Assembly (NCBI GenBank): GCA_947259375.1
Contig: CAMYLZ010000018.1
Location: 55,441-119,440 of the forward strand
DNA: 64,000 bases
Direction: 5' to 3'
DNA from: an uncultured Parvularculaceae bacterium
GTDB lineage: Bacteria > Pseudomonadota > Alphaproteobacteria > Caulobacterales > Parvularculaceae
Position 1 is the stretch's first letter. Each line of letters opens with the position of its first letter. A model generated the notes under the pieces. The model did not search any database. It was not told the DNA's origin and saw nothing but the letters and a program-made list of their open reading frames with translations. Made by a program: the position numbers and the translations under genes. Positions 24,129 to 50,345 of the stretch are shown piece after piece.

Positions 24129-25433
24129 TTATGCGCGCCCAATCGAATGATAGGCAATGCCCGCTTCGGCCATTTCCGCCGGCCGGTAAATATTCCGTAG
24201 ATCAATCATTATCGGCGCATTTAGCAGTGCTTTGACGCGATCCATATCAAGCGCCCGGAACTCATCCCATTCGGTAATGATGGCCACGGCGTCGGCGCCG
24301 TCAAGCGTCTGGTACGGGCCTTCGGCATATTCGACATTTTCCAGCAGGTCTTGCGCCTCTTTCATGCCGGCCGGATCGAATGCGCGAACCTTTGCGCCGA
24401 CCGCCTGCAACGCCGGAATGATATCGAGCGACGGCGCGTCCCGCATATCGTCCGTATTCGGCTTGAATGTCAGCCCGAGCACGGCGATAGTCTTGCCGCT
24501 TACATCGCCGCCGCAGGCGTTGATGATACGCTCCGCCATCTTTTTCTTGCGTGCCGCATTGATCTCGACCACCGCTTCGACGATCCGCGTCGGCGATTCA
24601 TGGACCTGCGCCGTACGGACCAGCGCCAGCGTGTCTTTCGGGAAGCACGAACCGCCATAGCCCGGCCCCGCATGCAGGAATTTTGACCCGATCCGCCCGT
24701 CCAATCCGATGCCGCGAGCGACTTCCTGAACATTGGCGCCGACCTTTTCGCAAATGTCGGCCATCTCGTTGATGAAGGTGATCTTGGTCGCCAGGAAAGC
24801 GTTCGCGGCGTATTTGATCAGCTCCGACGTCGAGCGATTGGTGAAGACGATCGGCGTTTCGTTGAGATAAAGCGGGCGATAAAGTTCACGCATCACTTTT
24901 TGCGCACGCTCGTCCTCCGCCCCGACGATTACCCTGTCGGGGTGCTTGAAATCATTGATGGCGGCGCCTTCGCGCAGGAACTCAGGATTTGAAACGACGG
25001 AAAACTCCGCATCCGGACGGGTCTTGCGGATGATCTCCTCGACTTCCGTTCCCGTGCCGACCGGCACCGTCGACTTGGTGACGACCACCGTGTAGCCGTT
25101 CATTACCGAGGCGATTTCTTCGGCGGCCTTGTAGACGTAAGACAAATCCGCAAAACCGTCGCCGCGCCGCGACGGCGTGCCGACCGCGATAAAAACCGCG
25201 TCAGCGTTCGGCGTCGATGCGGCAAGATCGAGACTGAAGGAAAGCCGGCCCGCCTTGACGTTTTCAGCCACCAGCGCTTCGAGCCCCGGCTCGTAAATCG
25301 GGATTTCGCCTGCTTCCAGCTTCTCGATTTTCGACCGGTCCTTGTCGACGCAAACGACTTCGTGGCCAAAGTCAGCGAAACAGGCCCCTGAAACGAGCCC
25401 CACATAGCCGGTGCCGATCATTGTTACGCGCAT
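24129..25433 (-). CDS. ugd: UDP-glucose 6-dehydrogenase
   Basis: IGTGYVGLVSG, FIAVGTP, KSTVPVGT, SNPEFLREG, GYGGSCFPKD, FKPNTDDMR. Confidence 0.96.
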   Translation of the reverse strand: MRVTMIGTGYVGLVSGACFADFGHEVVCVDKDRSKIEKLEAGEIPIYEPGLEALVAENVKAGRLSFSLDLAASTPNADAVFIAVGTPSRRGDGFADLSYVYKAAEEIASVMNGYTVVVTKSTVPVGTGTEVEEIIRKTRPDAEFSVVSNPEFLREGAAINDFKHPDRVIVGAEDERAQKVMRELYRPLYLNETPIVFTNRSTSELIKYAANAFLATKITFINEMADICEKVGANVQEVARGIGLDGRIGSKFLHAGPGYGGSCFPKDTLALVRTAQVHESPTRIVEAVVEINAARKKKMAERIINACGGDVSGKTIAVLGLTFKPNTDDMRDAPSLDIIPALQAVGAKVRAFDPAGMKEAQDLLENVEYAEGPYQTLDGADAVAIITEWDEFRALDMDRVKALLNAPIMIDLRNIYRPAEMAEAGIAYHSIGRA

Positions 25434-25502: not shown

Positions 25503-26960
25503 TTAGACGGCGTTCTTGGGAAAGACCACCGCCCGGACGGTCAAAATCAGGATTTTAATATCGAACCACAAGGACCAATTGTCGATATAGGCGAGGTCAT
25601 AGCGGACCCGGCCGGCCATTTGCTCGCGTTCGGAGGTCTCGCCCCTATATCCGTTGACCTGCGCCCAGCCGGTCAGTCCCGGCTTGACCTTGTGACGGCC
25701 CGAATAATTCTCGATCATGCGGGCATATTGGTGATTATGGGCGAGCGCATGCGGGCGCGGGCCCACCAGAGACATTTCGCCCCGGATCACGTTGAAAAGC
25801 TGGGGCAGTTCATCAAGGCTATAGCGGCGCAAAAAGCGCCCGATCGGCGTGATCCGCGCATCGCCGGTCTTTGCCTGTTCAATGACAGCGCCGTCATCGG
25901 CCGCGGTCATCGTACGGAATTTGTACACTTTAAAGACTGCATTGTTGAACCCGTGCCGCTGCTGGGCGAACAGGATCGGCCCTTTGCCCTGGAGCTTGAG
26001 GGCGAGCGCGATCAACGCCATGACCGGCGCAAAAACAATCAGCGCGCTGATGCCGAACACATAATCTTCAACCGTTTTGGCGACCCCGCCCCAGCCCTCA
26101 AGCGGCCGGCGATAAAGAGACAAAACCCGGACCCCGCCGACATCGGCGATCGCGCCGCCAAGATGATCGAGCCAATGAATGTTCGGGCAGATGGCGATCG
26201 ACACCGGTAAGATGGAAAGACGGCGGATCAAGCCCGACATGTCTTCCGGCGCCGTTCGCGGGGCGGCGATGACAATGTCGTCAACCTCGCCATTGCGCGC
26301 CGCTTTCGCAAGATCGTCAAGGCCGCCTTTCGCATGGGCGTATTGCGCGTCGCGCGGGTCTTCCAATCCGCATTTATAGACCCCGACCACCGAGATGCCC
26401 TGCGGGGATGCAACCGCGCGTTCGGCGAATTTCAGCCCCAGCGAAGATGCGCCAACCACCGCGACCCGCCGCGCAAAAACGCCGCCGTCCCGGCTCATAC
26501 GATGGACGAACGCCGCCGCCGCGACACGCACCGAGATGACGACCGCCAGCGCCGCGCCGCTCCAGGCGAATAGCCATACCCGCGAGTAACTGTCGGAAAG
26601 CTTCATGGCAAACGCGAAGGCGAGCAAGCCAAGCACGGTCAGCGCCCAGCGCGCCAGAATAGCGCGCAGCAAACCGTCAAGTCTCGCCAGTTGCTCGAAC
26701 TCGTAATAACCGTCGCGGCGCATCAGGGTGGAAAAGACAGTCGCCGCGACAATGCCCGCCGTCGCGTAACTCTGGAAATCAAATCCGGCCTGAAACGCGA
26801 AACGATGATACAGATAGGCGACGCCGACTGATGTGAAGATCACATTGACGAAGTCAAAAAACTGAACAATGTCGCCGAACAACGCACGCGCCACCGGCGC
26901 GCGCCGCCTTACGCCGTCCGCCGAAAACCCATCCGCGCTATGAACGCCGGATTCCGCCAT
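25503..26960 (-). CDS. Undecaprenyl-phosphate glucose phosphotransferase (WcaJ/HfsE-like priming GT)
   Basis: N-terminal TMs plus YKFRTM, DARITPIGRFLRRYSLDELPQLFNV, MSLVGPRP, KVKPGLTGWAQVNG, WSLWFDIKIL. Confidence 0.93.
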   Translation of the reverse strand: MAESGVHSADGFSADGVRRRAPVARALFGDIVQFFDFVNVIFTSVGVAYLYHRFAFQAGFDFQSYATAGIVAATVFSTLMRRDGYYEFEQLARLDGLLRAILARWALTVLGLLAFAFAMKLSDSYSRVWLFAWSGAALAVVISVRVAAAAFVHRMSRDGGVFARRVAVVGASSLGLKFAERAVASPQGISVVGVYKCGLEDPRDAQYAHAKGGLDDLAKAARNGEVDDIVIAAPRTAPEDMSGLIRRLSILPVSIAICPNIHWLDHLGGAIADVGGVRVLSLYRRPLEGWGGVAKTVEDYVFGISALIVFAPVMALIALALKLQGKGPILFAQQRHGFNNAVFKVYKFRTMTAADDGAVIEQAKTGDARITPIGRFLRRYSLDELPQLFNVIRGEMSLVGPRPHALAHNHQYARMIENYSGRHKVKPGLTGWAQVNGYRGETSEREQMAGRVRYDLAYIDNWSLWFDIKILILTVRAVVFPKNAV

Positions 26961-30657: not shown

Positions 30658-31784
30658 TCATGCAGATTCAATCCGACCCAAAAAATCGCATTCGGGAAGC
30701 GGCGGCGGAAATTGGGTTCGATGCGGTCGGCTTTGCTGACGCAAACTTGCCTGATGCGATCCGCGACCGTTTTACGCGCTTTCTGGAGCTCGCCCGCCAC
30801 GGAACCATGGGCTGGCTCGAAAATCGCGCCGAGCAGCGCGTCCATCCCAACGGCCTTTGGCCGGATGCGCGAAGCGTCATCATGCTGGGCATGAATTACG
30901 GACCCGATACGGACCCGATGCGGGCGCTTGAAGCGAAATCAAACGGCGTGATTTCCGTCTATGCGCGCAATCGCGATTATCATGATGTCGTCAAGAAGCG
31001 GCTGAAACGTCTCGCACGGCAAGTCGTCGAAGAACACGGCTGCGAGGTCAAGGTATTCGTCGATACCGCGCCGGTTATGGAAAAACCGATCGCGGCGCGC
31101 GCAGGCCTCGGCTGGCAGGGCAAGCATACCAATCTGGTTTCGCGCCGGCACGGCTCCTGGCTATTTCTTGGAGCGATTTTTACAACACTTTCCCTCACCC
31201 CCGATGAAGCGGAGCGCGACCATTGTGGTTCCTGCCGAAACTGTCTTGAGGTTTGCCCGACAAGCGCTTTCCCGGCGCCCTATCAGCTCGATGCGCGCCG
31301 GTGCATCTCCTATCTGACGATTGAGCATCCCGGCCCGGTTCCACAAGAGTTTCGCAAGGCCATGGGCAATCGAATTTACGGATGCGACGATTGTCTTGCG
31401 GTTTGTCCTTGGAACAAGTTTGCGGCCGAAGCCCGCGAAGCGGCGTTTCACGCGCGCGATGAATTGCGCACGCCGACGCTTGAAGATCTCGCAGCGCTTG
31501 ACGACGCCGCGTTCCGCAAGCTTTTTTCCGGCTCCCCCGTAAAGCGCACCGGTCGCAATCGATTTGTGCGAAATGTATTAATCGCCATTGGCAACTCCGG
31601 CGATGCAGCACTTGTTCCTCGTGCGGAGGCTTTGCTTGAAGACGAAAGCCCTATTGTGCGCGGCGCCGCCATTTGGGCGCTGTCCCGGCTTTCGCCAGAC
31701 CGCGCAGCGCGGGCCCGAAACAGCCTGGCTTCCTGCGAAACTGACAAGGGCGTTATCGCCGAATGGTCGGCGGCAGGCGATTAA
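30654..31784 (+). CDS. queG: Epoxyqueuosine reductase
   Basis: [60 protein letters not shown]. Confidence 0.96.
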
Positions 31785-34700
31785 GCCTCCACTGTCACGG
31801 TCACGGTTGTCTTGTCGAAATTGCCGTGATCGTCTTCGACCCAGTAAGCAAACGTATCCACGCCGGTAAAACCCGGATCCGCGATATAGCGCACGGTGCC
31901 GTCGTCATTGACCGAAACGATCCCGTGATTGGCAGGGTCGAGACCGTCAATACGCAATTCATCGCCATCCGGATCATAATCATTTGCCAGGACATCAATA
32001 TCCACTTGCTCGCCGCTGCCGACGTTCGCAAAATCATCACGGCCCACTGGCGCGAGGCTGTTCAAGTCCAGAACTCCATGATATTCCGGCTCGACATCAA
32101 GATCGGAAAAATTCCGCTCCCACTCGACGAATACGCCGACTTTCTGCACCTCCCCGGTGGCGCGATCGGCGTAATACTGATCGATGATCGTGACCTGTCG
32201 CCCATCCGGCAAGGTCCAATAGCCTTCTTCTTCCAGCGCATTGCGGATCGTGAAATAGTCGTGGCGGTTCGGATCCCATGTCGGGGAAACGATCGCCGCG
32301 CCGACAGAGTCGGTTTTCGTTCCTGTCAGATCCAGGAAATTACCGGCGCCAGGCAATGGCGTCACCGGAATATTGTCAATGTCGGAATCAAATAGCAGGC
32401 GGCCTGTTACAAGCTGATCCGCGGTAAGGAACAGATCGCCGGCGCCAGCGCTGAGATTGCCGAAATCCGTATCCGCGCCGTCGACATTGACGTCGATAAA
32501 GACATATCCCCAATCACCATCAAACGGATGGTTGAGATTGGTCTCCTGCTTGGATGCATAAACGCCAGTCGGGAAGCCCGAAATAGCGGCGCCGTTGATC
32601 GTATTGTCGATGGAGTTCGGGCCGAACTCAATGCCGCGCCAGGGCGCACGCGCGCCGCTCGACTGGTCCGTCGCAATGAGGTCAATATCGCGCAACGTAT
32701 AATGCGCCGTATATTGCAGATGAATGCCGGTGCGCACTTCCCAGCCGGTGAAATCTTCAATGACGGAACGAACATCATGAGCTTGTTCGGACCCTCCCTT
32801 GATCACCTCAAGGCCGATACCCACCGCAATAGCTTCATTACCGTAAAACTGGGTAATTGCTGGATAATTGACGATTGCCTCATCCACATAGCGTAACGAC
32901 TCGGAAAAATCTGCGGTCGCCGGGTCGACAGGAATCACGCCCCCGCCGCGGGACATATAAACAAATCCGTGTCCGCCGGGTACGCCGGCGGCGACATTGT
33001 CCACAGCATCGACAAGGCGGCCCTGAAACCAGAACCCCGCACCGGTGCGCCCAAGGTCGAATGCGGAAACGTCCTCATGCCACTTGGCGCCGCCGCCATT
33101 ACCGATCGACTTGATCGCAATATTATGGGTCCAACGACCCGTCTCATTTCCTGTTTCCGCAACAAACGCCGCGCCATAAACATCGTAAGCAGCATTATCG
33201 GCGAGCACCGCATTCGAGTCATGGTGCACATATCCCCAACCGGGCGATCCCCACACTGCGTTGCCGACAAGATAGGCCGGATCATCGATATCGGAGACGC
33301 CGGCGCGATGGATATGAAGAGAGTAACGGCCCTTCACATTGGAATCGCTCTGGATGTTCTCAATGTCGCCAGCGTCGAATGCCCGCTCTGATTTGTCCGT
33401 CCGGCCAAGCTCGGTGAACTCCGCGTAACGCACATCGATGTCATCTGAATGCATGAACATCACATGCCCACGCTGGTGAACGGGAACCGCATCTCCATTC
33501 TCCGTCTCGAACACCACATTGCGCGAATAATTCGCCACATAGGCCTTCAAGTCAGCGCGCGGCGCCTCGTGGTCGAATTGCAACGGCCGATCGAAATGAA
33601 TGACATTGCCTTCGATACGCGTGATGATCAGCTCCTCATCTTCTGTTTGATCATCGCGCGGCACGGTCGGCGCCACCTCTTCCGAATGCGTCAAATTCGT
33701 GCCGGTCAGGACAAGCCTGTCGCCGACTTGCCAGCCTTCAGGCGGATTTTCGAGGGTCAATGTCGTATCGCCCGCCATCGGGTCAAGCGCGACTTTCAAA
33801 AAGGAATCCTTCTTGGCGCCGTGAATTTCCGTTGCGCCGTGGCTAATGACGCCGCGCGAAAGCAGCATTGGATCCCATGCAACATCGATCGGCCCGTTAT
33901 CCGCGATCTGGATTACCGCCTGCACATTGGCGGCGACCGGGTTCTCCGCCGTGCCGATCGTCAAACGCCCGCTTGGCGCGACCAGCAAGGTATCGACTTC
34001 CATGAAAGTATCGACGTCGGTTGCAAAATCGAGCGCCCCATCAACGCGCACGGTGAACAAAGAGACCGGGCTTTCGCCGTCATAGGCGACCTCAACGCCA
34101 TGGGAGATAACCACTTTCGCGCCTTCGCCAGGCACCTCTCCGTTGGCCCATGTCGCTGGGTCAAACCATGAACCGCTATTGACAGCGACATGCGTCGCTT
34201 CTTCGACGGGGGCGAGATTAAGCGCCGCAATATGCTCTGACGCTTTTGCTGGGTCATCGGGGTGCGGAGCGCCATCATTGTGGCCGCCATGACCGCCCGT
34301 TCCATCCGGCTGATCTTCCGAACCGCCATTATGCCCGTCCGCGCCGCTATCGCCTCCGCCATCCGCGGCGACGTCAATTTCAACAACGGCGTCGCTGAGA
34401 TTGCCGTCGCTGTCGCGGACTTCGTAACGAAATGTTGCGACGCCCTCAAAACCTTCCTCCGGCGCGAAATGAATGACGCCGTCATGCAGCATCACCGTGC
34501 CGTTAACGGCGTCGAACACTCGGACCAATTCAAGGGTCGTATCCGGCGCATGCGTATCATTGGCAAGCAGGTCTTCCGCCGCAATCTGAATGCCGGCGCC
34601 GGATTGGGTTGAAAAGTTCCCGTCATCTTCCGCCATAAGCGTCGATGGCGGCGGCGTCCCCGGCCCGTCAGATTCTCCGCCGGCGGCGCCGCCAGACGCC

Positions 34701-34990
34701 CCGCCATCAGAGGCGCCGCCTGAGCCTGAGCCGGCCCCGTCATCCGGTCCGCCAGGCGGGTCAATGCCGTCATTGGCTGTCGGGCCGCCCTTGCTGCTGA
34801 GCGTGAAGCAACCTTCCACCGCCAGAAGCGGCGCAATCATGCTGGCTTGGGAAAGGCGTTTCTTGACTTTTGGGCGGCGCGCGCGGCGGCCTTGTGCCGG
34901 GGTTGATAACAACCCCGCCTCGGACGCCTCCAGAATGTCGCGAAGATCGAAAGATGAATAACGCTTAGCCGCATCAAAATCAGAACTCAT
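31781..34990 (-). CDS. Large extracellular protein: Ig/cadherin-like domain + G8 domain + parallel beta-helix + Ig-like domain
   Basis: Two LLAND/VLAND...TF.Y.V.D Ig-like repeats; G8 start [24 protein letters not shown]; [40 protein letters not shown]. Confidence 0.82.
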
Positions 34991-35187
34991 AACATTCCCG
35001 TACGCTACGCCTTACAACCTGTCCCCACTCAGGGGAGCCAAGGCACTCTAGGCAATTACGAGAAATGCAAAATTGAACGTCTTGTTAGAATTGTCGCTAG
35101 ATTGGGGAAACGACGCGATTTTTCACAAACCTTACGCGCTATTAATGGCCCCCGATGGCGCTATTGTCGGCGCCGCTCCCTGCCGGG

Positions 35188-37356
35188 TTAACGAAGCGTT
35201 GCCGCGTCTTGACCGGATTCGGTTTCGGTTGATGCGGCGCGCCCCATGCCAAACAGATTGGCCTGCGCAATGCCGCGTTCGACGAAACGCGCTCGATCAG
35301 CCTCCGGCGCCCAGCCCAGAACCTGTTTGGCGGCGGCATTGTCGAAGGGCGAGCGCTGCGCACGCGAACTCCAGTCGCGAAAACTTGGGCGCGTGAGCCC
35401 GGGCTTCCTCGCAATCAGGCGTTTCAGCCAGTATTTCACCATATCGACAACGAAATAGGTCCAGACCGGCGTCGGGCCTGTGCGCATGCGAACGCCGCAG
35501 GCGCGGCTGACTTCATCAAAATAATCGCGCGCGGACAGCATCGGCTCGCCAATGAGGTTGAATGACCGGCCGAGCGCCTCCGGCTTGTCCATCGCCAGCA
35601 CCAGGCCGGCGGCGACATCATCGACCAGCACGAACGGCATGAAATTGCGCCCATCGCCCCAAAGTTTGCAGGCGGTCGCGCCGCGCCACATGGCAATCCC
35701 CCAATGCTGCAAGGGACCGCCCTTTCCGATAACGATACCCGGGCGCGCAATCACCAAAGACAAGTCACGCGCTCTTTGCAATGCCAGTAATTCCTCCTCA
35801 CACGCCGCTTTGGAGCGCGCATAAAGATTGCGGCGTTCGAGGTCTTCATCAAACGGGGTTTGCTCCGTAATCGTCCTATCAGCGTTCGATGCATCATATG
35901 AATCGATCGTGCCGGTATAAACCAGCCGTTTCACTCCCGCCGCCAGGCACGCCTCGCCAATTCGGCGCGTTACCGCGACGTCGTTCTCGAGATATCCCTG
36001 CCAGCTTGACTCACTCGCGCGCGCCAGGTGGAAAACGCCGTCAGCACCCGCCATCGCCGCCCTCAAGTCTTCATCAGACTTCAAATCGCCGCTTATGACC
36101 GATACCCGGCCATCCTGACGGGCGAGGCCGCCGCCTGCGCCGCGCGAGAAGACACGCACATGATATCCTTGGTCAAACAAGGCGCGACACAAAGCTCTTC
36201 CAATAAAACCTGTGCCGCCAATCACCAGCATCGTCTTGCCATTGGCTTCCGGCGGGGGCGTTTGGGCATCGCGCTTCGGCGCGAATTTCGAACCCGCATC
36301 CCCAACCGCCCGTTCGATCATTGCCGTAGCGCTTGCGGCAAGCCCCGCAGACAACCGCCCGTCAATGTCAGCGCCGTCATGCATGGAACGATAAAAACCA
36401 TCTACCGCGCGCTGTATCGATAGCCCGTAAGGCGCGTGCGCATTCAGCGATGTCAGTTGGCGAAACGCATTACCGGCGCCGGCGCTGAACGCCTGCCGCG
36501 CCGTCGACAATTGGCGAAGCAGCGGGCCGACGACAATATCGCCCATGGGCGCCGTCTCGCGCCGGTATGTATCCTCTGCAAAATCGTAATGCGCCACCGC
36601 GCCAAGCCCGCGTATGCGCAAGGACCGATGATCGCACCCCTCAACCAGCGACAGATTTAGATTCACCGACGTATGGCCCGCGCGGCCCGTAATGCGCCAA
36701 CCTTGATAGTGGGTGACCCCGCCGGGAATTTCGATGGGATTGCGCAAATCGACGCTAATGTCATCCAACGGTCCGAGAATATCCGCGACAAAAGCAAACA
36801 AATGCGGCCCAAGTTCGAATAGGAGGTTTTGCGGCTGGCGCAGCATCCACAGGCTGAAGGGGCCGGAACGCAGCGGCGCCAGCGGAAACTGCCAATTCGC
36901 TTCGAATGTATCGATCGGGCCGATAATCCCGCTCGCGATATCAGCCTTGAGCCGATCATAGGAAGGCAGCATCAGAAAATTATGATTGACGCCGAGATGC
37001 GCGCCCTTCGCGTTGCTGAGCGCATCAAGCCGCTGACAATCCTCAACATTCAAGGCAAACGGTTTTTCAACAAAAGCCGCGATACCGGCCTTCAGGATTT
37101 TTTCCGCTGCTTCCGCATGAATATGCGGCGGTGTTAAAACATGAACGCTGTCTGCGACGCCCGCATCGAGCATTTCATCGAGCGACGTAAACACGCGCGC
37201 CGCGCCGCAACGTCCGGCAAGCGCGTCGGCTGCATTGCGGGAAAGGTCGCAAACAGCGCTGATTTCAACGCCGGGCGTGCGCTTTAACGCGCCAGCATGC
37301 CAATCGGCGATGTACCCGGCGCCCAGAAGCGCGACTCTTGTTGCTGCTTTGCTCAT
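35188..37356 (-). CDS. Gfo/Idh/MocA oxidoreductase fused to NAD-dependent epimerase/dehydratase (SDR)
   Basis: N-half GAGYIA, VLTPPHIH, VEKPFA, GVNHNF, ELGPHL; C-half GGTGFIG, VFHLA, YARSK, RPGIVIG. Confidence 0.88.
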   Translation of the reverse strand: MSKAATRVALLGAGYIADWHAGALKRTPGVEISAVCDLSRNAADALAGRCGAARVFTSLDEMLDAGVADSVHVLTPPHIHAEAAEKILKAGIAAFVEKPFALNVEDCQRLDALSNAKGAHLGVNHNFLMLPSYDRLKADIASGIIGPIDTFEANWQFPLAPLRSGPFSLWMLRQPQNLLFELGPHLFAFVADILGPLDDISVDLRNPIEIPGGVTHYQGWRITGRAGHTSVNLNLSLVEGCDHRSLRIRGLGAVAHYDFAEDTYRRETAPMGDIVVGPLLRQLSTARQAFSAGAGNAFRQLTSLNAHAPYGLSIQRAVDGFYRSMHDGADIDGRLSAGLAASATAMIERAVGDAGSKFAPKRDAQTPPPEANGKTMLVIGGTGFIGRALCRALFDQGYHVRVFSRGAGGGLARQDGRVSVISGDLKSDEDLRAAMAGADGVFHLARASESSWQGYLENDVAVTRRIGEACLAAGVKRLVYTGTIDSYDASNADRTITEQTPFDEDLERRNLYARSKAACEEELLALQRARDLSLVIARPGIVIGKGGPLQHWGIAMWRGATACKLWGDGRNFMPFVLVDDVAAGLVLAMDKPEALGRSFNLIGEPMLSARDYFDEVSRACGVRMRTGPTPVWTYFVVDMVKYWLKRLIARKPGLTRPSFRDWSSRAQRSPFDNAAAKQVLGWAPEADRARFVERGIAQANLFGMGRAASTETESGQDAATLR

Positions 37357-38336
37357 TTGTACTCGACGATCTCAACCTTTGCGCCCGTCAGCATTCGCCA
37401 GCGGTGTTTCAGGATGCCAATCAGGTTTGGAAATTTCGCTAACGTCAAAAACGCTGCGCCCAGGCTTGCATGACGCGGCGCTTCTCCCCGGCGGATCAGC
37501 CCTTGCCGGGTGCGCAGAAACGATGCCGGATACAGGCCCAGCAATAAAAAGCTCAAGCCATTCGATAATGGCGCGCCGACAAGCGCCGCCGCTGGCAGGG
37601 CGAGCCCCCAGCCCCAAGCGCGCCGGCGCTCGGCGCGGAAATAATCACGATGCAAATCGCCGAGCTGCGCAAAAGCGCAGCCGGCCCGAACCATCCGCCG
37701 CCACCATTGCCCGAATTCATGCATATCCGCATCGTGAAAACACATGTCGCGATCGATCCGCACGATGCGCGCGCCATTGGCGCGAATGCGAATGCAAAAA
37801 TCATCATCCTCCGCGGCGATAATATTGTCGCGAAACCCTTCAACGCCGCGAAAGGCGTATGCCCGGACCATAAAAATTCCGCCGCATGCATTTATATCGC
37901 CAGCCGGGCCGCGCCATTCAATTTCACACAAGCGGTTATAAATGCTCGCATCGGGGAGCCGCTCGCGGCAACGGCCGGTGACAACGCCAATTGTTTCGTC
38001 ATGGCTGAGCGTCGCAGCGGCGGTTTCAATGAAACCATCTATAAGCGCACAATCGCCGTCGATAAACATAACATAATCGGTATCGGGCCAGCGCGCTTCC
38101 AGCGCACGGAACCCGGCATTGCGCGCCCGCGCCGCTGTAAAACCGTTTGCTTCTTCAAGCGAGACGACAAGCGCGCCGTGTTCTTCCGCATAAGGAACGC
38201 TTTCATCGACAGAACCGGAATCCACATATACGATCCGCTCGCCAGCGCCTTTCAACGACGCCAGGCATTGTTTGAAGCGTTCGCCCTCGTTCCGCCCTAT
38301 GGCGACAAAGCCAATTGTTCGTTTCAGGTCATTCAC
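37353..38336 (-). CDS. Glycosyltransferase family 2
   Basis: GTG start overlapping the upstream TGA; IGRNEGERF..CL, VDSGSVD, RARNAG, FIDGD (DxD), EDDDFCIR. Confidence 0.9.
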   Translation of the reverse strand: MNDLKRTIGFVAIGRNEGERFKQCLASLKGAGERIVYVDSGSVDESVPYAEEHGALVVSLEEANGFTAARARNAGFRALEARWPDTDYVMFIDGDCALIDGFIETAAATLSHDETIGVVTGRCRERLPDASIYNRLCEIEWRGPAGDINACGGIFMVRAYAFRGVEGFRDNIIAAEDDDFCIRIRANGARIVRIDRDMCFHDADMHEFGQWWRRMVRAGCAFAQLGDLHRDYFRAERRRAWGWGLALPAAALVGAPLSNGLSFLLLGLYPASFLRTRQGLIRRGEAPRHASLGAAFLTLAKFPNLIGILKHRWRMLTGAKVEIVEYK

Positions 38337-39529
38337 GGGCGCGGCTCCGCATCGTCGCCGCGCGTCGGCGTCCACTGCTTGACGCTGTCGCGCCCCGCCT
38401 TGCCGAATACTTTCGCTTTCGCTGCGATGAACTGAATGCCTCCGCCAATCGCCGACGGCGGCAGGGCGTCGCGCCCATACGCAACCCAGCCGATGAATAA
38501 AGCAAGGCCGGTCAAAACAAGCGCCGAAATTCCAAGCGAGAACGCGCCGAAAAACCCTGTCGCCAGCCAGGTCGCGCAACCGAGCCCCGCCACGGCTCCA
38601 AGCATGGCGATAAACAAAGTCAGCGGCGGGATCATAAGGTCCGCCGCCGCGCCGATTAACCGCCAATTCCGTTGCTCAATCCCCTGCCTGATCAAGGCCA
38701 TGAACGACCGTGCGGCAAAGCGAACCGACCCGAGCGACCAACGCGCCGCCTGGCGGGTCATCGCCGCTTCTCCGGTCGGAAACAGGCTCGTCACGGCCGC
38801 ATCTTGCGCCAGCATCGGCGCCGCGCCGGCGCGCACCAGTTGCAAGGACAGCGCGAGGTCTTCGACAATCTCGCCGGATCCGACCTTCGCATGCTCAACC
38901 GTTCGCCACGGCGCAGCAAAACCGGACCCGGTAAAACGGGTCACGTCGAATATTCGCTGCAATCCGCTCATGCGCACTTTATTGATGAACAGCCAGGCGA
39001 ACTCCGCCGCCTGCCACCGCGGCCCGGCGCCGGCAGGCGCCTTCATCAGGTAAAGCGCTTGCACAGGACGGCCTTCCTGCGCGGCAAGGCCAGCGACCTT
39101 TTGCAAGGCGCCGTCATCAAACAGACAATCAGCATCTGCGAAGACGATGATCGCCGGCGGCGCCGCGCGCAACGCATCGATGGCGAATTGCAGCGCATAT
39201 CCCTTGCCGCGTGCTTCCGGCGCATTGCGCACCAGCACTTCAGCGCCATGCCGCAGGGCGGTTTCCGCAGTTTCATCAGTGCAATTATCCGCAACCACAA
39301 TCAAACGGTCGCGATCACGCAATTGAGCGCGAATATTATCGAGCGTCGGCGCAATGGTTCCCGCCTCGTTATGCGCCGGCACGACGATGGCAATCGGCCC
39401 GGCGCCGTCCGCCGCTGGTCGGAGCGTCACAGGCGCAAGCGCGGCGATCGCCTCGGCAAACAGGAGCCCTGCCAATGCGAGGCCCGCCATCGCAAGCCCT
39501 GTCGAGGTGATAATCAAAAATACGGACAT
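38333..39529 (-). CDS. Glycosyltransferase family 2 (membrane-anchored)
   Basis: VPAHNE, ADNCTD, GKGYAL, FADADC, EDLAL, RQAARW (QxxRW). Confidence 0.9.
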   Translation of the reverse strand: MSVFLIITSTGLAMAGLALAGLLFAEAIAALAPVTLRPAADGAGPIAIVVPAHNEAGTIAPTLDNIRAQLRDRDRLIVVADNCTDETAETALRHGAEVLVRNAPEARGKGYALQFAIDALRAAPPAIIVFADADCLFDDGALQKVAGLAAQEGRPVQALYLMKAPAGAGPRWQAAEFAWLFINKVRMSGLQRIFDVTRFTGSGFAAPWRTVEHAKVGSGEIVEDLALSLQLVRAGAAPMLAQDAAVTSLFPTGEAAMTRQAARWSLGSVRFAARSFMALIRQGIEQRNWRLIGAAADLMIPPLTLFIAMLGAVAGLGCATWLATGFFGAFSLGISALVLTGLALFIGWVAYGRDALPPSAIGGGIQFIAAKAKVFGKAGRDSVKQWTPTRGDDAEPRP

Positions 39530-39542
39530 GGGTGCTTGCCGT

Positions 39543-41672
39543 TCAGGGGCGGCTTGCGCCAAACCAATAACGCATTGCGCCGAGCAACTCGGGAAATTTT
39601 CCAAAAACAGAATAGAATCCGCGCCGCCAGGAAGCTGGCCGGAAAACGCCGCGGCGAAACACGCTGGCGAAAAACAGCAGCAAGTAAACAGCGAGCCCGG
39701 CGGCGACAACGCCGCCAGCCGCCACCGCCGCCGGCGTCAGCGGCGCGACCAGCGAGGCGGCAAACGCCGCTCCGCCGGCGAGCAGCGCCACGCCGAGCGG
39801 AAATACGCCGCCCCAGAAAACAGCGCGAAATGTCGGCGCAGCCCCATATCGCTCGGGCGGGCCGCCATGCAAGGAAACCGCATAAGCGTTGTCGAACCCA
39901 CGCCTCCGACAGGCGCGCCACCAACGTCCGACCGTCGGCCTTTGTTTTTCATATATCGCCATATCGGCTTCAAGCCGCCAGATATGCGCGCCGCGCCGGC
40001 GCTGGCGAATGCACAGATCCTCAAGATCGCACGACATCAAATCGCCACGAAAGCCGCCAGCCGCTTCGAACGACGCGGCGCGCACCAAAGCCGCGCCGCT
40101 CGCAGTCATGACGATTTCTCCGGGCTCGCCCAGCACTTTGGCGTCCTTGATGGATGAAAATTCCACCTTGTCGCCTGCGCCGCCGATGATCGCACCTTCA
40201 ACCATTGCGACTTCCGGACGCCGTTCGAGAAACCTCTCCGCTGTCGGCAGCCAGTCCGGATCGATGGCCGCGCCAGCCTCAATCAACTGAACATAATCGA
40301 GGCGCGAAGCCAGCCGTTTCAATTGCCGATAGCCGGCGTTGCGCGCCCGCCCGCCGGTTTGAAACGGTTTTCCATTATTTTCGACAACTACAGCGCCTGC
40401 ATTGCGGGCTTGCGAAAGCGCTTCGGGCATTTCAGCAAGCGGCGCAAAAATAATCGTCCGCCCCTCACGGGCCACGGAGCGGATGGTCGCCTCGGGCGAG
40501 ATTTCAGGATCTGCGCTGGTAATAACGACGCCCGTCGCCACCGCCGGCGCTGCGGCTGGCGTCTCCGATTCCCTTGACGGCGCCGGCGCCGGATCAGCCA
40601 GATCGACCGTCGCCGTCATGCTCACCGCCGCGGATGGCGCAAATTGATCAGGGGGCGATTTTTCATCCTGCGGCGGCGGCCCAACCATAGCGCGATCATG
40701 CGGGGTTGCCCTGAGGTCTGAAAAGCCGGACGCCGCAGCGTGCGACGCCTCTTGCGGGTCAAGCTGGTCGCTCAGCCGGGCGCCGCCGTTTGCAAACGCA
40801 TCCGGCCCTGCTTCTTCGTCCGCCGGGATTGGTCTTGCGCCGCCCTCATCCGACGCGATCCCGAAAACCCCGTAAGTCAGCTTGTCGCGAACGACATTGC
40901 GCACCGTTTCCACACCGACGACGCGATCCTCGGCGGAAAATGCGTATACCAGCGCAGTGTCCGCGATGATGTTGATCACCCGCGGCACGCCGCGTGACTG
41001 CTCAGCAATCAGATCAATGGCGCGTTCGGTGAAAATTCGCTGATGGCTGCCGGCGATCGACAGCCGTGTTTCGATATAGGCTTGCACCTCGTCACGGCTA
41101 AGCGGCGTCAGGTGAAAGTCCGAACCAACCCGCTGGGCGAGTTGTAACAGTTCGGGACGGTTGAGGAGCTCTTTAAGTTGCGGCTGGCCGACCAGTATCA
41201 ACTGCAGGAGCTGGTCCTTGCCGGCATTGATGTTGGACAAGAGCCGCAATTCCTCAAGCATGTCCATCGATAGGTTTTGCGCTTCGTCGATGATCAGGAC
41301 AATGCGCTTTCCCTTTGCGTATTCGCTTATGAAGAATGTCTGCAATTGCGAGAACAACCCGACATGACTGTTATCGTCAAATGGCTGGCCGAACGCCATC
41401 AGCACCCAACTCAGCAAATTTCCGCGCCCGGCCTGTACGTTGGAAAGCAGCGCGACTGTATGAGTGTCGGACAACTGGTCCAGCAGGCGATGGATGAGCG
41501 TGGTCTTGCCGCAGCCGACCTCTCCGGTAATTACGGAAATGCCCGCATGGTTGAGAACGCCGTATTCAAGCATCGCATAGGCGAGCCGATGCGTTCTCCC
41601 CCAGTAAAGAAACGACGGGTCCGGTTGGATTGAGAATGGTTTCTCCGAAAGGCCGAAAAACTGCTCATACAT
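39543..41672 (-). CDS. ExeA/PEP-CTERM-associated AAA ATPase fused to a degenerate GT2 domain
   Basis: MYEQFFGLSEKPF..QPDP, Walker A GEVGCGKT, Walker B IIDEAQ, LILVGQPQL, SRGVPRVIN; residues ~381-709 align with the GT2 at 37353-38336. Confidence 0.85.
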   Translation of the reverse strand: MYEQFFGLSEKPFSIQPDPSFLYWGRTHRLAYAMLEYGVLNHAGISVITGEVGCGKTTLIHRLLDQLSDTHTVALLSNVQAGRGNLLSWVLMAFGQPFDDNSHVGLFSQLQTFFISEYAKGKRIVLIIDEAQNLSMDMLEELRLLSNINAGKDQLLQLILVGQPQLKELLNRPELLQLAQRVGSDFHLTPLSRDEVQAYIETRLSIAGSHQRIFTERAIDLIAEQSRGVPRVINIIADTALVYAFSAEDRVVGVETVRNVVRDKLTYGVFGIASDEGGARPIPADEEAGPDAFANGGARLSDQLDPQEASHAAASGFSDLRATPHDRAMVGPPPQDEKSPPDQFAPSAAVSMTATVDLADPAPAPSRESETPAAAPAVATGVVITSADPEISPEATIRSVAREGRTIIFAPLAEMPEALSQARNAGAVVVENNGKPFQTGGRARNAGYRQLKRLASRLDYVQLIEAGAAIDPDWLPTAERFLERRPEVAMVEGAIIGGAGDKVEFSSIKDAKVLGEPGEIVMTASGAALVRAASFEAAGGFRGDLMSCDLEDLCIRQRRRGAHIWRLEADMAIYEKQRPTVGRWWRACRRRGFDNAYAVSLHGGPPERYGAAPTFRAVFWGGVFPLGVALLAGGAAFAASLVAPLTPAAVAAGGVVAAGLAVYLLLFFASVFRRGVFRPASWRRGFYSVFGKFPELLGAMRYWFGASRP

Positions 41673-41742
41673 GATGTTTTCGCTTCCAATCGGCCCTTGC
41701 GCCGTCGCATCCCTTACTGACTATCACGACAAACGCCGCCGA

Positions 41743-44157
41743 CTACATCCGGTCTAGCAGCGCCCGCACGTCATTTTCAAATATGAAGTCCGGGCCGCCA
41801 AGCCTCAGCGCCTCTTCAAGGCTTTCGCGGGCCGCTTCCTCGTCGCCGCTGGCGAATTGCGCGGCGCCAAGGTGATATCGCATTTCGGCGCTCTCGCCGA
41901 CGCCGGCCACCGCCTCGGCAAGATACTCAAGCGCCCGGTCATACTCACCGGAGCGATAATACGCCCAGCCGACCGTGTCGCGATAATAAGGGTTGTCGAG
42001 CGTTTCCAGGGTCTTCGCCACCTCAAGAGCGCGCGCGATGCTTGCGGCGTCCAAAAGCAGGTCGGAGGACAGGCTGACGAAATTGTTGGCGATAATACGA
42101 TCATTGGGACGCTCTTCGATCAGGTCCGAATAAATCGCCAATGCGCCTTGGCGGTCGCCGCGCTGGATCAGGACATCCGCCTTGAAAACCCGCATGGCGC
42201 TGTTTTCCGGCGCGGCCTGCAGACCGCGTTCAATCAACGCGGCGGCGTCTTCGAACCGCTCTTCGTCAAGATAATGCCGATAAACAAGCTCATAAGCTTC
42301 CGGACGCTCTGGCGCGACATCAATCGCCCGCTCCAGCGTCGCCAGATAGTCGTCATCATTATCGCGAGAATCATGAATGCGCGCCAACAGAAGATAGGCG
42401 GGATATTTGTCCGCATCGGAATTAATGATCCGGGTCAACAACGCTTCCGCGTCGTCCAGACGATCCGAGCGCATGTAAGCCGTCACCACTGCGGTCAGCG
42501 GCTGGCTTTCAAACGGAATTTTCTCCTCATTCGCTGCAAATGCATCAATAACGCCCTGATAGTCGCCAAGACCGATATAAGCGGCGGATTTGATCCTCGC
42601 CGCCAGAGCATCCTGATTGGCGACGTCTTCCAACAAGGCAGCGACTTCTTCCGCGCCGCGCCAGTCCTGCTTGGCAAGGCGAATGGAGGCAAGAAGTTTA
42701 AGGTTCTCCGTATCCCCCGGATGCGCCGCCAGCGAGTCCACCAGCACTTCCTCAGCCCGTTCTACATTGCGGCGGCGCAGGAGAAATCTTGAAAAACGCT
42801 GTGCGACGCCTGCCGCCCGATTACTCGTCTCGAAGGCTTTCGCCAATTCGGCCTGCGCAAAATTGAGATTGTCCTGTTTTTCGAACGCGGCCGCCATCAG
42901 CACCATGGCGTCATATTCATCCGGACTATTGTCCAGCGCCGAGCGAAGATTGACGACCGCCTGGTCATATTGAGCATCATCGATCTGCAATGCCGCCCGC
43001 TTGATTAATGCGGCTGTATTGCGCTCATCCGCCGCCAGAATTTCATCAATCAGGGCCCGCGCCTGATCTCGCTCGCCGTCTTTCAGCAACAAGACGGCGA
43101 TCTTGTTCTTGGCTTGAAATGCAATGTCGAGATTTTCGGATGCCGCAAGGCCGTCAAGAAGCGCGCGAGCGCTTTCGGCATCGTCTTCCTGCACATAAAA
43201 ATCCGCCAAGGCGAATTGCACTTTGGCATCGTCCGGATTGGCTTGCGCAAACGCCCGCAGCGTCGCTTCCGCCGCTTGAGCGCCTTCGATGCGATTGACG
43301 ATCCGCACGACATTGAGTTTTGCGTCGAGATTTTCCGGTTCAAGACCGGCGATCGCTTCCAATTGCTCGCGCGCCTGAGCGAGTTCGTCCCTTCGAATGA
43401 GCTCTTGTGTAAAAACCCGCCGATAGGCCGGTTCTTCAGGGAAGTTCTCGATAAGTTGCGCGTAAGCGTTCAATATCTCGGTCTCTCGGCCAAGCCGCTG
43501 GAGCGCGTGAATGCGCAATAACTGCAAAACCGCGATCTGCGGATTGATCTCAAGCGCCTTGTCGATTTCCGCCAGCGCCCCCTCGAAATCACCGTCTTGC
43601 GATTTTTGCGTCGCGAGGACGGTCACGGCCTCCGCGTTCGCCGGGTCTTCGGCCACGACGCCGCGTGCAATCTCAACAGCGCCCGCAGCATCGCCAATCT
43701 TCAAAAGCACTGCCGCTTTAAGCGAGCGCGCATCGACATTTTCCGCATCCAGCGCCAGCGCTTTTTCGGCTTTTTCGAGCGCCGATGTTTCATCGCTGCT
43801 CACGAGAAAGAGCTTGCCGAGTTTGATCTGCGCGTCGATTTGCGCCGGGTCGAGCCGCGCAACGCTTTGCAAAATCCCGAACATCGCCTTGAAGTCATTG
43901 CGCTGTTCAGCAATTTCCGCGAGCCCGACCAGCGACGGGATATGTTCCTCGTCGATCTTCAGGGCGTTTTGAAACTGGATATAGGCTTTCGGCAAATCAC
44001 CTGCTTCTAGATATTCCGCGCCATCCGTACTGTAACGCTCGACTTTCTGTTCAGGCGAGGCGCACGCGGCGGCCGCCAGCGCCATCGCCGATACAGCCGC
44101 AAATCTGAGATAGCCCGCTCGCTTGATCGAACCTTTCCGTTTGCCGATTGTCGTCAT
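41743..44157 (-). CDS. TPR-repeat lipoprotein, PrsT-like
   Basis: Basic N-region and lipobox LAAAAC, then TPR repeats along the whole length; ends RDTVGWAYY...YHLGAA. Confidence 0.85.
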   Translation of the reverse strand: MTTIGKRKGSIKRAGYLRFAAVSAMALAAAACASPEQKVERYSTDGAEYLEAGDLPKAYIQFQNALKIDEEHIPSLVGLAEIAEQRNDFKAMFGILQSVARLDPAQIDAQIKLGKLFLVSSDETSALEKAEKALALDAENVDARSLKAAVLLKIGDAAGAVEIARGVVAEDPANAEAVTVLATQKSQDGDFEGALAEIDKALEINPQIAVLQLLRIHALQRLGRETEILNAYAQLIENFPEEPAYRRVFTQELIRRDELAQAREQLEAIAGLEPENLDAKLNVVRIVNRIEGAQAAEATLRAFAQANPDDAKVQFALADFYVQEDDAESARALLDGLAASENLDIAFQAKNKIAVLLLKDGERDQARALIDEILAADERNTAALIKRAALQIDDAQYDQAVVNLRSALDNSPDEYDAMVLMAAAFEKQDNLNFAQAELAKAFETSNRAAGVAQRFSRFLLRRRNVERAEEVLVDSLAAHPGDTENLKLLASIRLAKQDWRGAEEVAALLEDVANQDALAARIKSAAYIGLGDYQGVIDAFAANEEKIPFESQPLTAVVTAYMRSDRLDDAEALLTRIINSDADKYPAYLLLARIHDSRDNDDDYLATLERAIDVAPERPEAYELVYRHYLDEERFEDAAALIERGLQAAPENSAMRVFKADVLIQRGDRQGALAIYSDLIEERPNDRIIANNFVSLSSDLLLDAASIARALEVAKTLETLDNPYYRDTVGWAYYRSGEYDRALEYLAEAVAGVGESAEMRYHLGAAQFASGDEEAARESLEEALRLGGPDFIFENDVRALLDRM

Positions 44158-44200
44158 CTAATTCTCCACCCTCATTGCGCCGGATGCCCGTGTGCCATCA

Positions 44201-44215
44201 TTAATGCGCCCTTAC
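44201..44215. promoter_or_regulatory. CtrA-like box TTAA-N7-TTAC
   Basis: ttaa-tgcgccc-ttac, 44 nt upstream of the TPR gene start. Confidence 0.5.
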
Positions 44216-44225
44216 AATCCTTGCC

Positions 44226-45452
44226 TTAGCTGGCAACCCGCTCTTTCGCGTCGCTGGCTTGCTGCTCGGCGCTCGCCGCCGCTCCGCAAGCATAATTCAT
44301 GCTGTTCAACCGTAACACGCGCCGCTGCGCCGGGCTGACCCCCTCCAAGGTGATCCGCTCGGCTCCAATGTGCTTTTCCAGCATCAAAAGCATTCCGAGA
44401 AACGCCCGATCAAACCGCGCGCCCGGCGCGAATACCAGCCGCACCGGGCGGTTCGCCGATGCCGCCTGCCGGAACGCGTCGCTCACCGGGGCGAGGCCCC
44501 TGCGCAAAAGGCGTCCGGAAAGTTCGATGCGCGATTCCGCAACGCCGAGCATGATGGCGGCGCCGGCCGGCGCCCCAGCGCCGCGACCGGCGCGTCCGAG
44601 TTGCGGCGCAACGCGCGTCAAAAACAAACCGGCCAGCGCGATCGCGTCCTCAAAATAACGCCGCCATAGTGACGGCTCTTCCTTGATGCGCCAGGCCCAT
44701 TCCAGTCCCAAATGCTGCAAGCGCCGCGGCGCGCGCGCGATGCCGCCCGCCGTAAAGTCAATCACCGCGCCAAGATGCGCCGTCACCGGCGCCATCAGTC
44801 GTTCGCGATTGCGCTCGATCCAAGCCTGCCCCTTTGCCGCGCCCAAGGCGACAATGACGAAATCCGGCGCCGTTGCATTGATATCGTTAATGACATCTTC
44901 TCCGCTCATGCTCTCCACATCGCCATAGCCCGGATTACGCCACCCAACCGCCTGTACGCCGTTTGATTCAGCATTGATCATCTTCGCCGCGGCTTCAGCG
45001 GCGCCGTCGCGCCCGCCGAAAAAGAATATTTTAAGCGGATGGCCGACAAAGGCGGGCCGCCGCCGCAACGCTTCGAACAGGTCGGAGCCGGCGACGCGCG
45101 TCGAAACCGGTATGCCCAGCAATCGCGCCATTAACACCAGCGGCCCGCCATCAATCAGGCTGAGATCGGCATTCAGGATCCGGCGCCGCTCCTGGCGGTC
45201 TCGCGCCGCGCGCACCAGCCAATTTACATTCGGCGTTACAAAAGACAGGCGGGCGCCGGAACGCACCGCAGTATCAATCGCCGCCACCGCCTGATTGATA
45301 TCGGCCATATCGACCGGCAGTCCCAACAAGCACCATACGTCGCGATCAAAATCATCGCGCCGCAAGGACGCGACGGGACCGCGCAACCTTGTCGTTGCGC
45401 CTGAGGCGGCGGACGCCTTGCTATTCGTCATGTCAGGCCGCGGCTCAGCCAT
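44226..45452 (-). CDS. WecB/TagA/CpsF glycosyltransferase with C-terminal STAS-like extension
   Basis: VTPNVN, LSLIDG, RVAGSDL, FFGG, IVALGAAKGQ.WI, GLEWAWR..EEP.LWRRY; ~95-aa tail. Start is 45452 or 45431. Confidence 0.87.
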   Translation of the reverse strand: MAEPRPDMTNSKASAASGATTRLRGPVASLRRDDFDRDVWCLLGLPVDMADINQAVAAIDTAVRSGARLSFVTPNVNWLVRAARDRQERRRILNADLSLIDGGPLVLMARLLGIPVSTRVAGSDLFEALRRRPAFVGHPLKIFFFGGRDGAAEAAAKMINAESNGVQAVGWRNPGYGDVESMSGEDVINDINATAPDFVIVALGAAKGQAWIERNRERLMAPVTAHLGAVIDFTAGGIARAPRRLQHLGLEWAWRIKEEPSLWRRYFEDAIALAGLFLTRVAPQLGRAGRGAGAPAGAAIMLGVAESRIELSGRLLRRGLAPVSDAFRQAASANRPVRLVFAPGARFDRAFLGMLLMLEKHIGAERITLEGVSPAQRRVLRLNSMNYACGAAASAEQQASDAKERVAS

Positions 45453-45540
45453 ATTTGTTTCGACGCCAATTCTCTGGGTTTGTGCATTCGCGGCGTTTCA
45501 GTCTGAGACCGGAAACACCGTTAATGAAACCTTGCTGCGA

Positions 45541-45555
45541 TTACCGCAATTCTAA
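45541..45555. promoter_or_regulatory. Weak CtrA-like box TTAC-N7-CTAA(C)
   Basis: Two mismatches; in the divergent tagA-like/exosortase intergenic region, with further TTAA half sites at 45521 and 45582. Confidence 0.3.
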
Positions 45556-45846
45556 CAGCAAAGCTGAGGCCATTTTTATCCTTAACACTCCCTTGGCCGG
45601 ATTTTATGGAGATTCGAACGCCCAGAGGGCCGGCGCCGCCGCCCCGGCGGCCGGGCGAAACGCGCCATGCACGCGGCCCGCCGTCACGCCTGAGGGAAGT
45701 TTTTTCACCGGTCTTTATTGCGAATACGCTTTGACGGATTGATCTACGGCGCCGTTTTTGCTGTCCTGCTACAAAGAATCCGACCGTAACGTCTTTATTT
45801 GGGGGGAGCGGACAGCGCCAGCATCCGCAAAAAGTGAATCGAATCT

Positions 45847-47472: not shown

Positions 47473-47478
47473 TTTTTG

Positions 47479-48450: not shown

Positions 48451-48482
48451 ACGATTTCACTGTTTCATTCTTGCTGCAGTTG

Positions 48483-48498
48483 CTAAGCTGGTTTTAAC
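48483..48498. promoter_or_regulatory. CtrA-like box CTAA-N7-TTAAC
   Basis: ctaa-gctggtt-ttaac between the divergent GT2 and wzc-like genes. Confidence 0.5.
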
Positions 48499-48681
48499 GC
48501 TTTGATTTAGCACGGCTTGCCCTGATTATAAGAGCCCTGCATGAGCCGCGCCGGCGTTCTGGCGGCGCAATTCTTGCAGCGCCGCTCGCCGATACAGGCA
48601 TGGCGTGTCCGCCGCGGCGCTAATGGCCGCATGAACTGGGATGAGGCTTCCACAGGCCTCGATGAACAGGACTGAACGAGA

Positions 48682-50310: not shown

Positions 50311-50345
50311 GCAAATAGGTCAGGATTTCGGGGTAGGTCGGCTTT

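Follow-up and report, generated by a model that had tools for sequence, protein, structure and literature searches.

A CEMIP/TMEM2-type beta-helix protein inherited with an XrtD exosortase exopolysaccharide island in Parvularculaceae

Introduction

TMEM2 (CEMIP2) and CEMIP (KIAA1199, HYBID) are vertebrate proteins of hyaluronan turnover that work outside the cell in a polysaccharide-rich matrix. The G8 "domain" of TMEM2 consists of the first coils of a continuous beta-helix (PMC10206443). Two GG (PANDER-like) lectin domains complete the CEMIP/TMEM2 architecture, with GG-1 sitting inside the helix and GG-2 at the C-terminus, and residues of GG-1 are required for hyaluronan degradation (PMC12423501). 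Here we describe a bacterial protein of this type, referred to below as the G8 protein. It is encoded in a 64,000-nucleotide stretch of DNA (the window) from an uncultured marine Parvularculaceae bacterium (assembly GCA_947259375.1, contig CAMYLZ010000018.1, positions 55,441 to 119,440 of the forward strand), where its gene lies at one end of an exopolysaccharide (EPS) island that contains an XrtD exosortase.

Bacterial EPS loci can carry glycanases or polymer-modifying enzymes of their own, among them PlyA/PlyB and ExoK/ExsH in Rhizobium, PslG, PelA, AlgL and the beta-helix epimerase AlgG in Pseudomonas, and BcsZ in cellulose synthesis. The G8 protein resembles these as a single dedicated, probably exported and glycan-active protein that is carried by and inherited with the locus, and its expected role would be the same, namely control of chain length, release or modification of the nascent polymer. 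It differs from them in family: the known enzymes belong to GH16, GH39, GH8, PL5, CE4/GH166 or the AlgG-type CASH beta-helix, none of which has a G8/CEMIP-type helix. Fibrocystin (PKHD1) and PKHD1L1, which we set beside it by description only, also place G8 ahead of PbH1 beta-helix repeats in an extracellular protein, but these eukaryotic proteins are of giant size, have multiple IPT/TIG domains and are not known to act as enzymes.

Results

The G8 gene is an open reading frame (ORF) of 1069 codons, the parts of whose product are listed in Table 1, and a genome-wide scan found it to be the sole G8 copy in the 3.2-Mb genome. The initial annotation had read from the sequence an immunoglobulin-like (Ig) domain, a Gly/His linker, a G8 domain, His-rich motifs and a second Ig-like domain, and all of these were located in the ORF by Pfam or by direct inspection. 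At E ≤ 1, the full Pfam list comprised Big_9, Cadherin_4, Cadherin_5, G8, CEMIP_beta-hel and CshA_repeat. G8 (PF10162) scored 59.8 bits (cut-off 22.9; E 3.2e-16) over profile positions 1-120 of 124, and CEMIP_beta-hel (PF24606) matched residues 552-680 with 35.1 bits (gathering cut-off 27.3; E 1.6e-8); cyanobacterial homologues score 47-48 bits against the latter.

Residues 250-1069 were modeled by AlphaFold2 with an alignment of 80 sequences. The model has a predicted local distance difference test score (pLDDT) of 95.6 and a predicted template-modelling score (pTM) of 0.94, and in it residues 250-960 are predicted to form one rigid beta-helix core of about 700 residues. The secondary-structure pattern of the model is consistent with G8 forming the first coils of the helix, as in TMEM2. 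In Foldseek against the PDB, the TMEM2 ectodomain (8c6i_A) ranked first, with an E value of 9.8e-17, a query TM-score (TMq) of 0.46 and 923 aligned columns. The runners-up were the Klebsiella K1 capsule lyase (7w1c/7w1d, E ~1e-10), the K64-1 depolymerase and the AP22, phi297 and LKA1 tailspikes, and the viral structure library BFVD again returned capsule depolymerases and tailspikes. The structural comparison that the initial annotation had proposed yielded a long beta-helix with TMEM2 first and polysaccharide depolymerases next, and of the outcomes that it had listed as speaking against its reading, none within reach of computation came true. A single-sequence phmmer search of the PDB returned only a low-complexity artefact, EZH2.

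The likeness to TMEM2 (8C6I) and CEMIP extends beyond the first coils. Both have a small beta-sandwich inserted past those coils, with the motif W.GD.(I/L)V..T, and another beta-sandwich past the helix, and both would act extracellularly in a polysaccharide-rich matrix. The differences are considerable. Overall identity to TMEM2 is about 10%, and the two GG lectin domains are absent from the bacterial protein (Pfam, E ≤ 1), whose 700-residue core is too small for a lectin insert of about 150 residues. In place of a type II transmembrane segment or a eukaryotic signal peptide, the bacterial protein has a leader with a lipobox-like Cys as its putative anchor; it adds cadherin-like Ig domains and a His-rich linker, sits in an EPS island, and its substrate in situ is certainly something other than vertebrate hyaluronan. 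Homology to TMEM2/CEMIP, as first claimed, is borne out by two Pfam models above cut-off, the top Foldseek rank of 8c6i and shared motifs (see below), whereas the further statement that the architecture is that of TMEM2/CEMIP is correct for the G8 plus beta-helix core and incorrect for the GG lectin domains. Because these domains are missing, we rejected identity as a CEMIP orthologue; the protein is a bacterial CEMIP/TMEM2-type variant.

The phage depolymerases (7W1C/7W1D, K64-1 S2-4 9K4A, AP22 gp54 4Y9V, LKA1 gp49 4RU4 and phi297 gp61 4RU5) share a right-handed beta-helix of similar length, at Foldseek E values of 1e-10 to 1e-7. Sequence similarity to them is undetectable, the G8 protein matching no PHROGs family, and TMq values of 0.14-0.26 with a large root-mean-square deviation indicate a resemblance of fold class and not a superposable active site. 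Moreover, the G8 protein is encoded in the producer's own EPS locus and has no evident trimerisation or tail-attachment domain.

In the 80-sequence alignment (A2), residues that are invariant or at least 90% conserved cluster in the central coils and comprise R507, H509, M511, M513, R530, D532, K533, N551, R555, Y556, H559, H561, H590, S592, N599, E612, E616, N623, K636, D645, R658, N665 and R681. About 20 polar residues are invariant in these 80 homologues, which are only 38-50% identical and span several phyla; read from the alignment, such a density of fixed His, Arg, Lys, Tyr, Glu and Asn looks typical of an enzyme site. The His motifs GHVMFMH (508-514), RYSLHIH (555-561) and YVHHDS (587-592), together with FVAETGNE, are invariant or nearly so across the set. 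Conservation of the core as a whole matches that of the housekeeping gene queG and, in the most distant orthologues, exceeds that of the neighboring family 2 glycosyltransferases (GT2s; 58% versus 44-47%).

Part of this cluster recurs in TMEM2. The A2 profile was contaminated by poly-Q matches from the tails, and the cleaner A1 family profile was used for this comparison. It aligned to 8c6i_A with an E value of 0.001 and the two share RN(I/V).I, GH.M.M, GRY..H.H, VH.(S/T)N and F..E.G.E, with the register of the VH..N motif uncertain by one residue. A longer loop with LGRTDK and N551, invariant in the bacterial proteins, has no match in TMEM2 in the profile alignment. Judged by the strand periodicity of the model rather than by its coordinates, H509/M511/M513, H559/H561, H590 and E612 would lie on successive coils of the same parallel sheet, with their side chains probably pointing outward. 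The K1 lyase cleaves with a metal-independent Tyr311/His373/Arg397 site (PMC8822698), and the Tyr/His/Arg inventory of the invariant set is the same as that of the K1 lyase site; the inventory is also compatible with a metal site.

The island in which the gene lies reads, from the G8 end, G8, a GFO/IDH/MocA-epimerase fusion, two GT2s, a pepcterm-type ATPase, a PrsT-like tetratricopeptide-repeat (TPR) protein, a WecG/TagA-STAS protein, an XrtD-EpsI fusion, an unknown gene, a chain-length determinant and a tyrosine kinase. The genes from WecG/TagA-STAS to the GFO/IDH/MocA-NAD-epimerase fusion form a minus-strand run that ends in the co-oriented G8 gene, which converges on queG beyond; the exosortase-EpsI fusion, chain-length determinant and tyrosine kinase oppose the run. 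The exosortase scored 487 bits against the XrtD model TIGR04152 (cut-off 400). The G8 gene had been placed directly downstream of glycosyltransferase genes and co-oriented with them; the orientation is as described, and the immediate upstream neighbor is the oxidoreductase-epimerase fusion, not a glycosyltransferase.

The position of the G8 gene is the same in each of the 20 Parvularculaceae loci whose length takes in the neighbors, although synteny alone is weak evidence for an EPS link because housekeeping neighbors are syntenic too. Of the family genomes, all 16 with G8 have an XrtD orthologue and none has G8 without one; in another five a more distant XrtD (47-49% identity) occurs in the absence of G8, and nine lack both (Fisher p 1.4e-4, uncorrected for phylogeny).

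The strongest evidence tying the G8 gene to the EPS system is a set of natural island deletions. Three congeners (G011, G006 and G051) lack the island, including G8, with both flanks intact and with queG, a glutathione S-transferase (GST) gene, an unknown gene, an inositol monophosphatase (IMPase) gene and ugd all kept. In G011, the missing block is exactly the interval from G8 through the tyrosine kinase, between queG and the genes of a resistance-nodulation-division (RND) pump; in G006 and G051, the island and the two RND genes are both missing, and the gene after them is kept on that side. A priming sugar transferase (Bac_transf plus CoA_binding_3), 5 kb off the island, is missing in the same three congeners, while ugd, beside the lost transferase, is kept in all three. 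In function, the transferase is therefore part of the island, and ugd is not. Accordingly, the proposal of a uronic-acid EPS, made from the nearness of ugd, is weakened, and we rejected ugd as proof of a uronic-acid substrate because it survives island loss. The proposed association of the G8 gene with EPS and xrtD loci was upheld by these deletions, by the 16/16 co-occurrence and by rearranged loci in other orders (below).

More than 100 proteins share the whole architecture and are its closest homologues, with core identities of 59-82%; those with a named source belong to Hyphococcus, Marinicaulis, Amphiplicatus and other Parvularculaceae. Marinicaulis metagenome-assembled genomes (loci L011-L015 and L020, locus coordinates of about 5600-9300) lack the GFO-epimerase fusion, and their GT2 and G8 genes are set apart by over 1 kb of different sequence; thus, the sugar-modifying part of the island varies while G8 stays.

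An exhaustive search with the core recovered 4276 cluster representatives, 1734 of them at E ≤ 1e-30. Most of the best 150 of the 4276 align to the core end to end (positions 2-697), in proteins of 463-2174 residues, the shorter ones being partial. At 40-50% identity the core occurs in Cyanobacteria, roseobacters, Bradyrhizobium, Paracoccus and Myxococcales, and in the wider family it is fused to LamG, CBM6, CBM35, PA14, GLEYA, RTX and cadherin modules. Database names for the relatives go no further than "G8 domain-containing" or "Ig-like domain-containing" protein. Among other Alphaproteobacteria the core is patchy, and a class-wide test of co-occurrence between G8 and exosortases was dropped because the core occurs in just 3 of the 400 other genomes sampled.

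In five independent, rearranged loci elsewhere in the class, the surroundings of the core are those of polysaccharide synthesis. An Aliiroseovarius sp. (GCA_048060095.1; locus L040, 139-14392) has two tandem G8 genes, encoding proteins of 1636 residues (with two PA14 domains) and 1463 residues, flanked on one side by the same GFO-epimerase fusion, a GT1 and a deacetylase and on the other by GT2, GT4, Wzx, a sulfotransferase and an exosortase-EpsI fusion. The same locus also has a 2-oxoglutarate-Fe (2OG-Fe) oxygenase gene. In Bradyrhizobium jicamae the homologue adjoins a PEP-CTERM protein, GT2, Wzx and GT4s, and three more alphaproteobacterial G8 loci contain Wzy, GT4, WecG, Wzc-like, rmlABCD or Bac_transf genes.

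The N-terminus of the protein carries an unusual, conserved leader. The start ATGAGT is kept in 10 orthologous loci in the alignment of upstream regions, and so the long N-terminal extension is translated. In most orthologues the leader has an extension of about 45 residues, with DL(L/I)xA and then GRRxRR(K/R), followed by a short hydrophobic stretch and (A/V/I)(E/Q)GC; here the hydrophobic segment is MIAPLLAV and VEGC (residues 58-61) comes next. Position -2 of the lipobox is E or Q among orthologues, and only the Q variants satisfy the PROSITE pattern [LVI][ASTVI][GAS]C. The Cys is kept in most orthologues and missing from several, and the Amphiplicatus leader is short and classical-looking (MKSR...LLAIQGC), with Q at -2 fitting PROSITE. 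From these patterns, a lipoprotein-type anchor is plausible, and the G8 protein is probably exported and tethered to the cell surface.

The linker ahead of the core contains the string GHNGG... at about residues 222-247. Its sequence is variable, being His/Met/Asp-rich in some orthologues and Thr/Ser-rich with GGHTHT in others. Across 27 orthologues, His averages 9% in the 60 residues preceding the core versus 2.8% within it, an enrichment that is at most suggestive of metal binding. The metal dependence proposed in the initial annotation has only such His-rich composition as its basis.

At the other end, the protein finishes with ...TVTVTVEA within its second Ig domain. A TIGR03370 scan of the genome placed no PEP-CTERM or VPLPA-CTERM tail on it, and for want of such a tail its identity as an exosortase substrate was rejected. 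RTX nonapeptide repeats (HemolysinCabind), which some roseobacter relatives have, were not found in the protein by Pfam scan, and identity as an RTX adhesin was rejected on that account.

Table 1. Positions of the G8 protein's parts, its upstream region, the island and adjoining genes in the window
Feature	Residues	Window position	Strand	Basis or remark
G8/CEMIP-like beta-helix protein with two cadherin-like Ig domains (1069 aa)	1-1069	31781..34990	-	ORF
Extended conserved leader with lipobox-like VEGC (Cys61)	1-61	34808..34990	-	
Low-complexity Gly/Pro/Ser/Asp spacer	62-118	34637..34807	-	Sequence; varies among orthologues
N-terminal cadherin-like/Big_9 Ig domain	119-207	34370..34636	-	Big_9 E 9.7e-12, Cadherin_5 E 5.6e-12
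Gly/His/Asp-rich linker, conserved HPDDPAK..EH motif at its end	208-249	34244..34369	-	
Conserved core of about 700 aa: G8 coils, small inserted beta-sandwich, main right-handed beta-helix, C-terminal beta-sandwich	250-960	32111..34243	-	
Pfam G8 (PF10162), N-terminal beta-helix coils	280-397	33800..34153	-	
Most conserved coils, candidate active or binding site	490-681	32948..33523	-	80-sequence alignment A2
C-terminal cadherin-like/Big_9 Ig domain	980-1066	31793..32053	-	Pfam E 4e-21
Conserved upstream elements: ATTAAT 35141-35146, GACAATTCTAACAAGACGTTCAAT 35072-35095		35072..35146	-	Alignment of 10 orthologous upstream regions
XrtD exosortase/EPS island, G8 gene at one end		31781..51161		Pfam/TIGR and congener gap
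Priming sugar transferase (Bac_transf + CoA_binding_3)		25503..26960	-	Missing in G011, G006 and G051
ugd, listed with the priming transferase		24129..25433	-	Kept in G011, G006 and G051
RND adaptor and permease pair		51344..55722	+	Kept in G011, absent in G006 and G051

Discussion

On balance, the G8 protein probably works, once exported, as an enzyme that breaks down or modifies the polysaccharide made by its own island. As a depolymerase or chain modifier of that polymer, it would govern how long the chains are, their release or how the matrix is remodelled. Its working site would be the face of the central coils that presents H509, R555, Y556, H559, H561, H590, E612 and E616, supplemented by the bacterial-specific loop with R530, D532, K533 and N551. 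Both cadherin-like domains, together with the flexible linkers, may serve as spacers or holders that push the helix into the polysaccharide layer. Catalysis rather than binding, and the identity of the substrate, are inferred; to computation, a hydrolase, a lyase and a lectin look alike.

Several observations weigh against this assignment. Our literature search found no paper on bacterial G8 proteins, and no member of the bacterial family has a reported assay. One careful study of human TMEM2 found no in vitro hyaluronidase activity and no assignable active site (PMC10206443), and the catalytic status of TMEM2 is disputed (PMC12423501). The G8 protein matches no pectate-lyase, Beta_helix or glycoside hydrolase (GH) model in Pfam at E ≤ 1 and bears no established lyase or hydrolase signature. 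Its leader departs from the usual pattern in its length, its short hydrophobic segment, the E at -2 and the Cys 61 residues from the conserved start. Finally, three cyanobacterial homologues (44-45% identity) lie amid housekeeping genes and outside EPS loci, and a link to self-EPS is therefore not inherent in the core.

A non-catalytic matrix lectin or adhesin is the alternative that we take most seriously, while thinking it unlikely. Here, the beta-helix would bind the island polysaccharide and tether it to the cell surface or cross-link it, with the cadherin-like domains giving protein-protein or Ca2+-dependent contacts. Comparable roles belong to the Pseudomonas protein CdrA, acting with Psl, and to Vibrio matrix proteins. 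The paired cadherin-like/Big_9 domains are as in large adhesins, the leader has a lipobox-like anchor, relatives bear the RTX, PA14 or LamG modules typical of adhesins, and TMEM2, the nearest solved homologue, was without measurable enzymatic activity in one study; inheritance with the island suits a binder as well as an enzyme. What a lectin leaves harder to account for is the core itself, since about 20 invariant polar residues and conservation at the level of a housekeeping gene are unusual for adhesins and lectins, which diversify fast. Moreover, the structural neighbors after TMEM2 are all active depolymerases, and the protein is present as a single copy per genome.

Two further explanations detach the protein from the island polymer. 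It could act on or bind foreign glycans, such as algal or cyanobacterial nutrient polysaccharide or a competitor's matrix, with its gene hitch-hiking at the island edge. The gene does lie at the very edge with its own conserved upstream region, cyanobacterial homologues stand amid housekeeping genes, the CBM6 and CBM35 modules of the family are common in nutritional polysaccharide-degrading enzymes, and the patchy spread (3 of 400 other Alphaproteobacteria) fits horizontal transfer. Yet five independent alphaproteobacterial loci, which differ in gene order, place a homologue within 10 kb of polysaccharide-synthesis genes, and in Aliiroseovarius, Bradyrhizobium and locus L045 these genes flank it on either side. 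The G8 gene was lost along with the island in the congeners, and no TonB receptor, sugar transporter or catabolic gene stands alongside it in the window, and so we regard a foreign substrate as improbable. Less probable still is a structural surface protein, a component of an S-layer, holdfast or stalk with no glycan function. The protein's size, beta-rich make-up, probable export and Ig-like domains, together with its prosthecate-type lineage, might invite that assignment, but homology and fold indicate glycan-active beta-helices, relatives have CBM fusions, and the strict link to EPS biosynthesis genes would be left without explanation.

If the protein is an enzyme acting on the island polysaccharide, as we favor, its chemistry might be of a less familiar kind. 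In one scenario, which we offer as a long shot, H509, M511, M513, Y556, H559, H561, H590, E612 and E616, a cluster common to the bacterial proteins and human TMEM2/CEMIP, would form a metal centre, which in this lineage would receive its metal from the His(/Met)/Asp-rich linker of the same protein, for metal-dependent and possibly oxidative polysaccharide cleavage. Such chemistry would differ from that of the Asp/Glu hydrolases, Ca2+ lyases and Tyr/His lyases among known beta-helices. If true, it would identify the long-sought CEMIP/TMEM2 active site and would account for the inactivity of purified TMEM2 without a cofactor or partner.

The locus adds a CEMIP/TMEM2-type beta-helix to XrtD exosortase EPS islands, as a fixed, co-inherited and previously unstudied class, and offers the G8 protein as a concrete candidate for extracellular processing of the polymer, be it as enzyme or as tether. 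The bacterial proteins have a reduced architecture, occur as single copies and probably lend themselves to expression, and they keep the central-coil His, Arg, Tyr and Glu motifs of TMEM2. They could thus provide a simple model for the human TMEM2/CEMIP family, whose active site remains unlocated. Natural congeners with and without the island are ready comparison strains.

Additional features of the locus

A gap of 197 bp separates the G8 gene from the upstream oxidoreductase-epimerase fusion. Its conserved elements, which across the 10 orthologous loci also read as ATTAAT and ACAATTCTAACAA..TCAAT, probably represent a promoter or operator of the G8 gene's own. No Rfam family matched positions 31000-36000 at E ≤ 1, and hence no riboswitch is indicated in the gene's leader. 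A scan for sigma-70 and terminator consensus sequences near the gene performed no better than shuffled expectation.

Elsewhere in the genome, four ORFs of about 210-250 residues have VPLPA-CTERM tails (C32:54774-54848, C7:80774-80848, C22:36870-36944 and C28:58292-58363, by contig), three of which exceed the TIGR03370 cut-off; the four supply XrtD with candidate substrates at scattered sites outside the window. The RND adaptor and permease pair adjoins the island on its far side from the G8 gene. In one family member (G116), contig C4 carries two extra tandem copies of the core (177120-184469; 39% identity), besides the orthologue on another contig.

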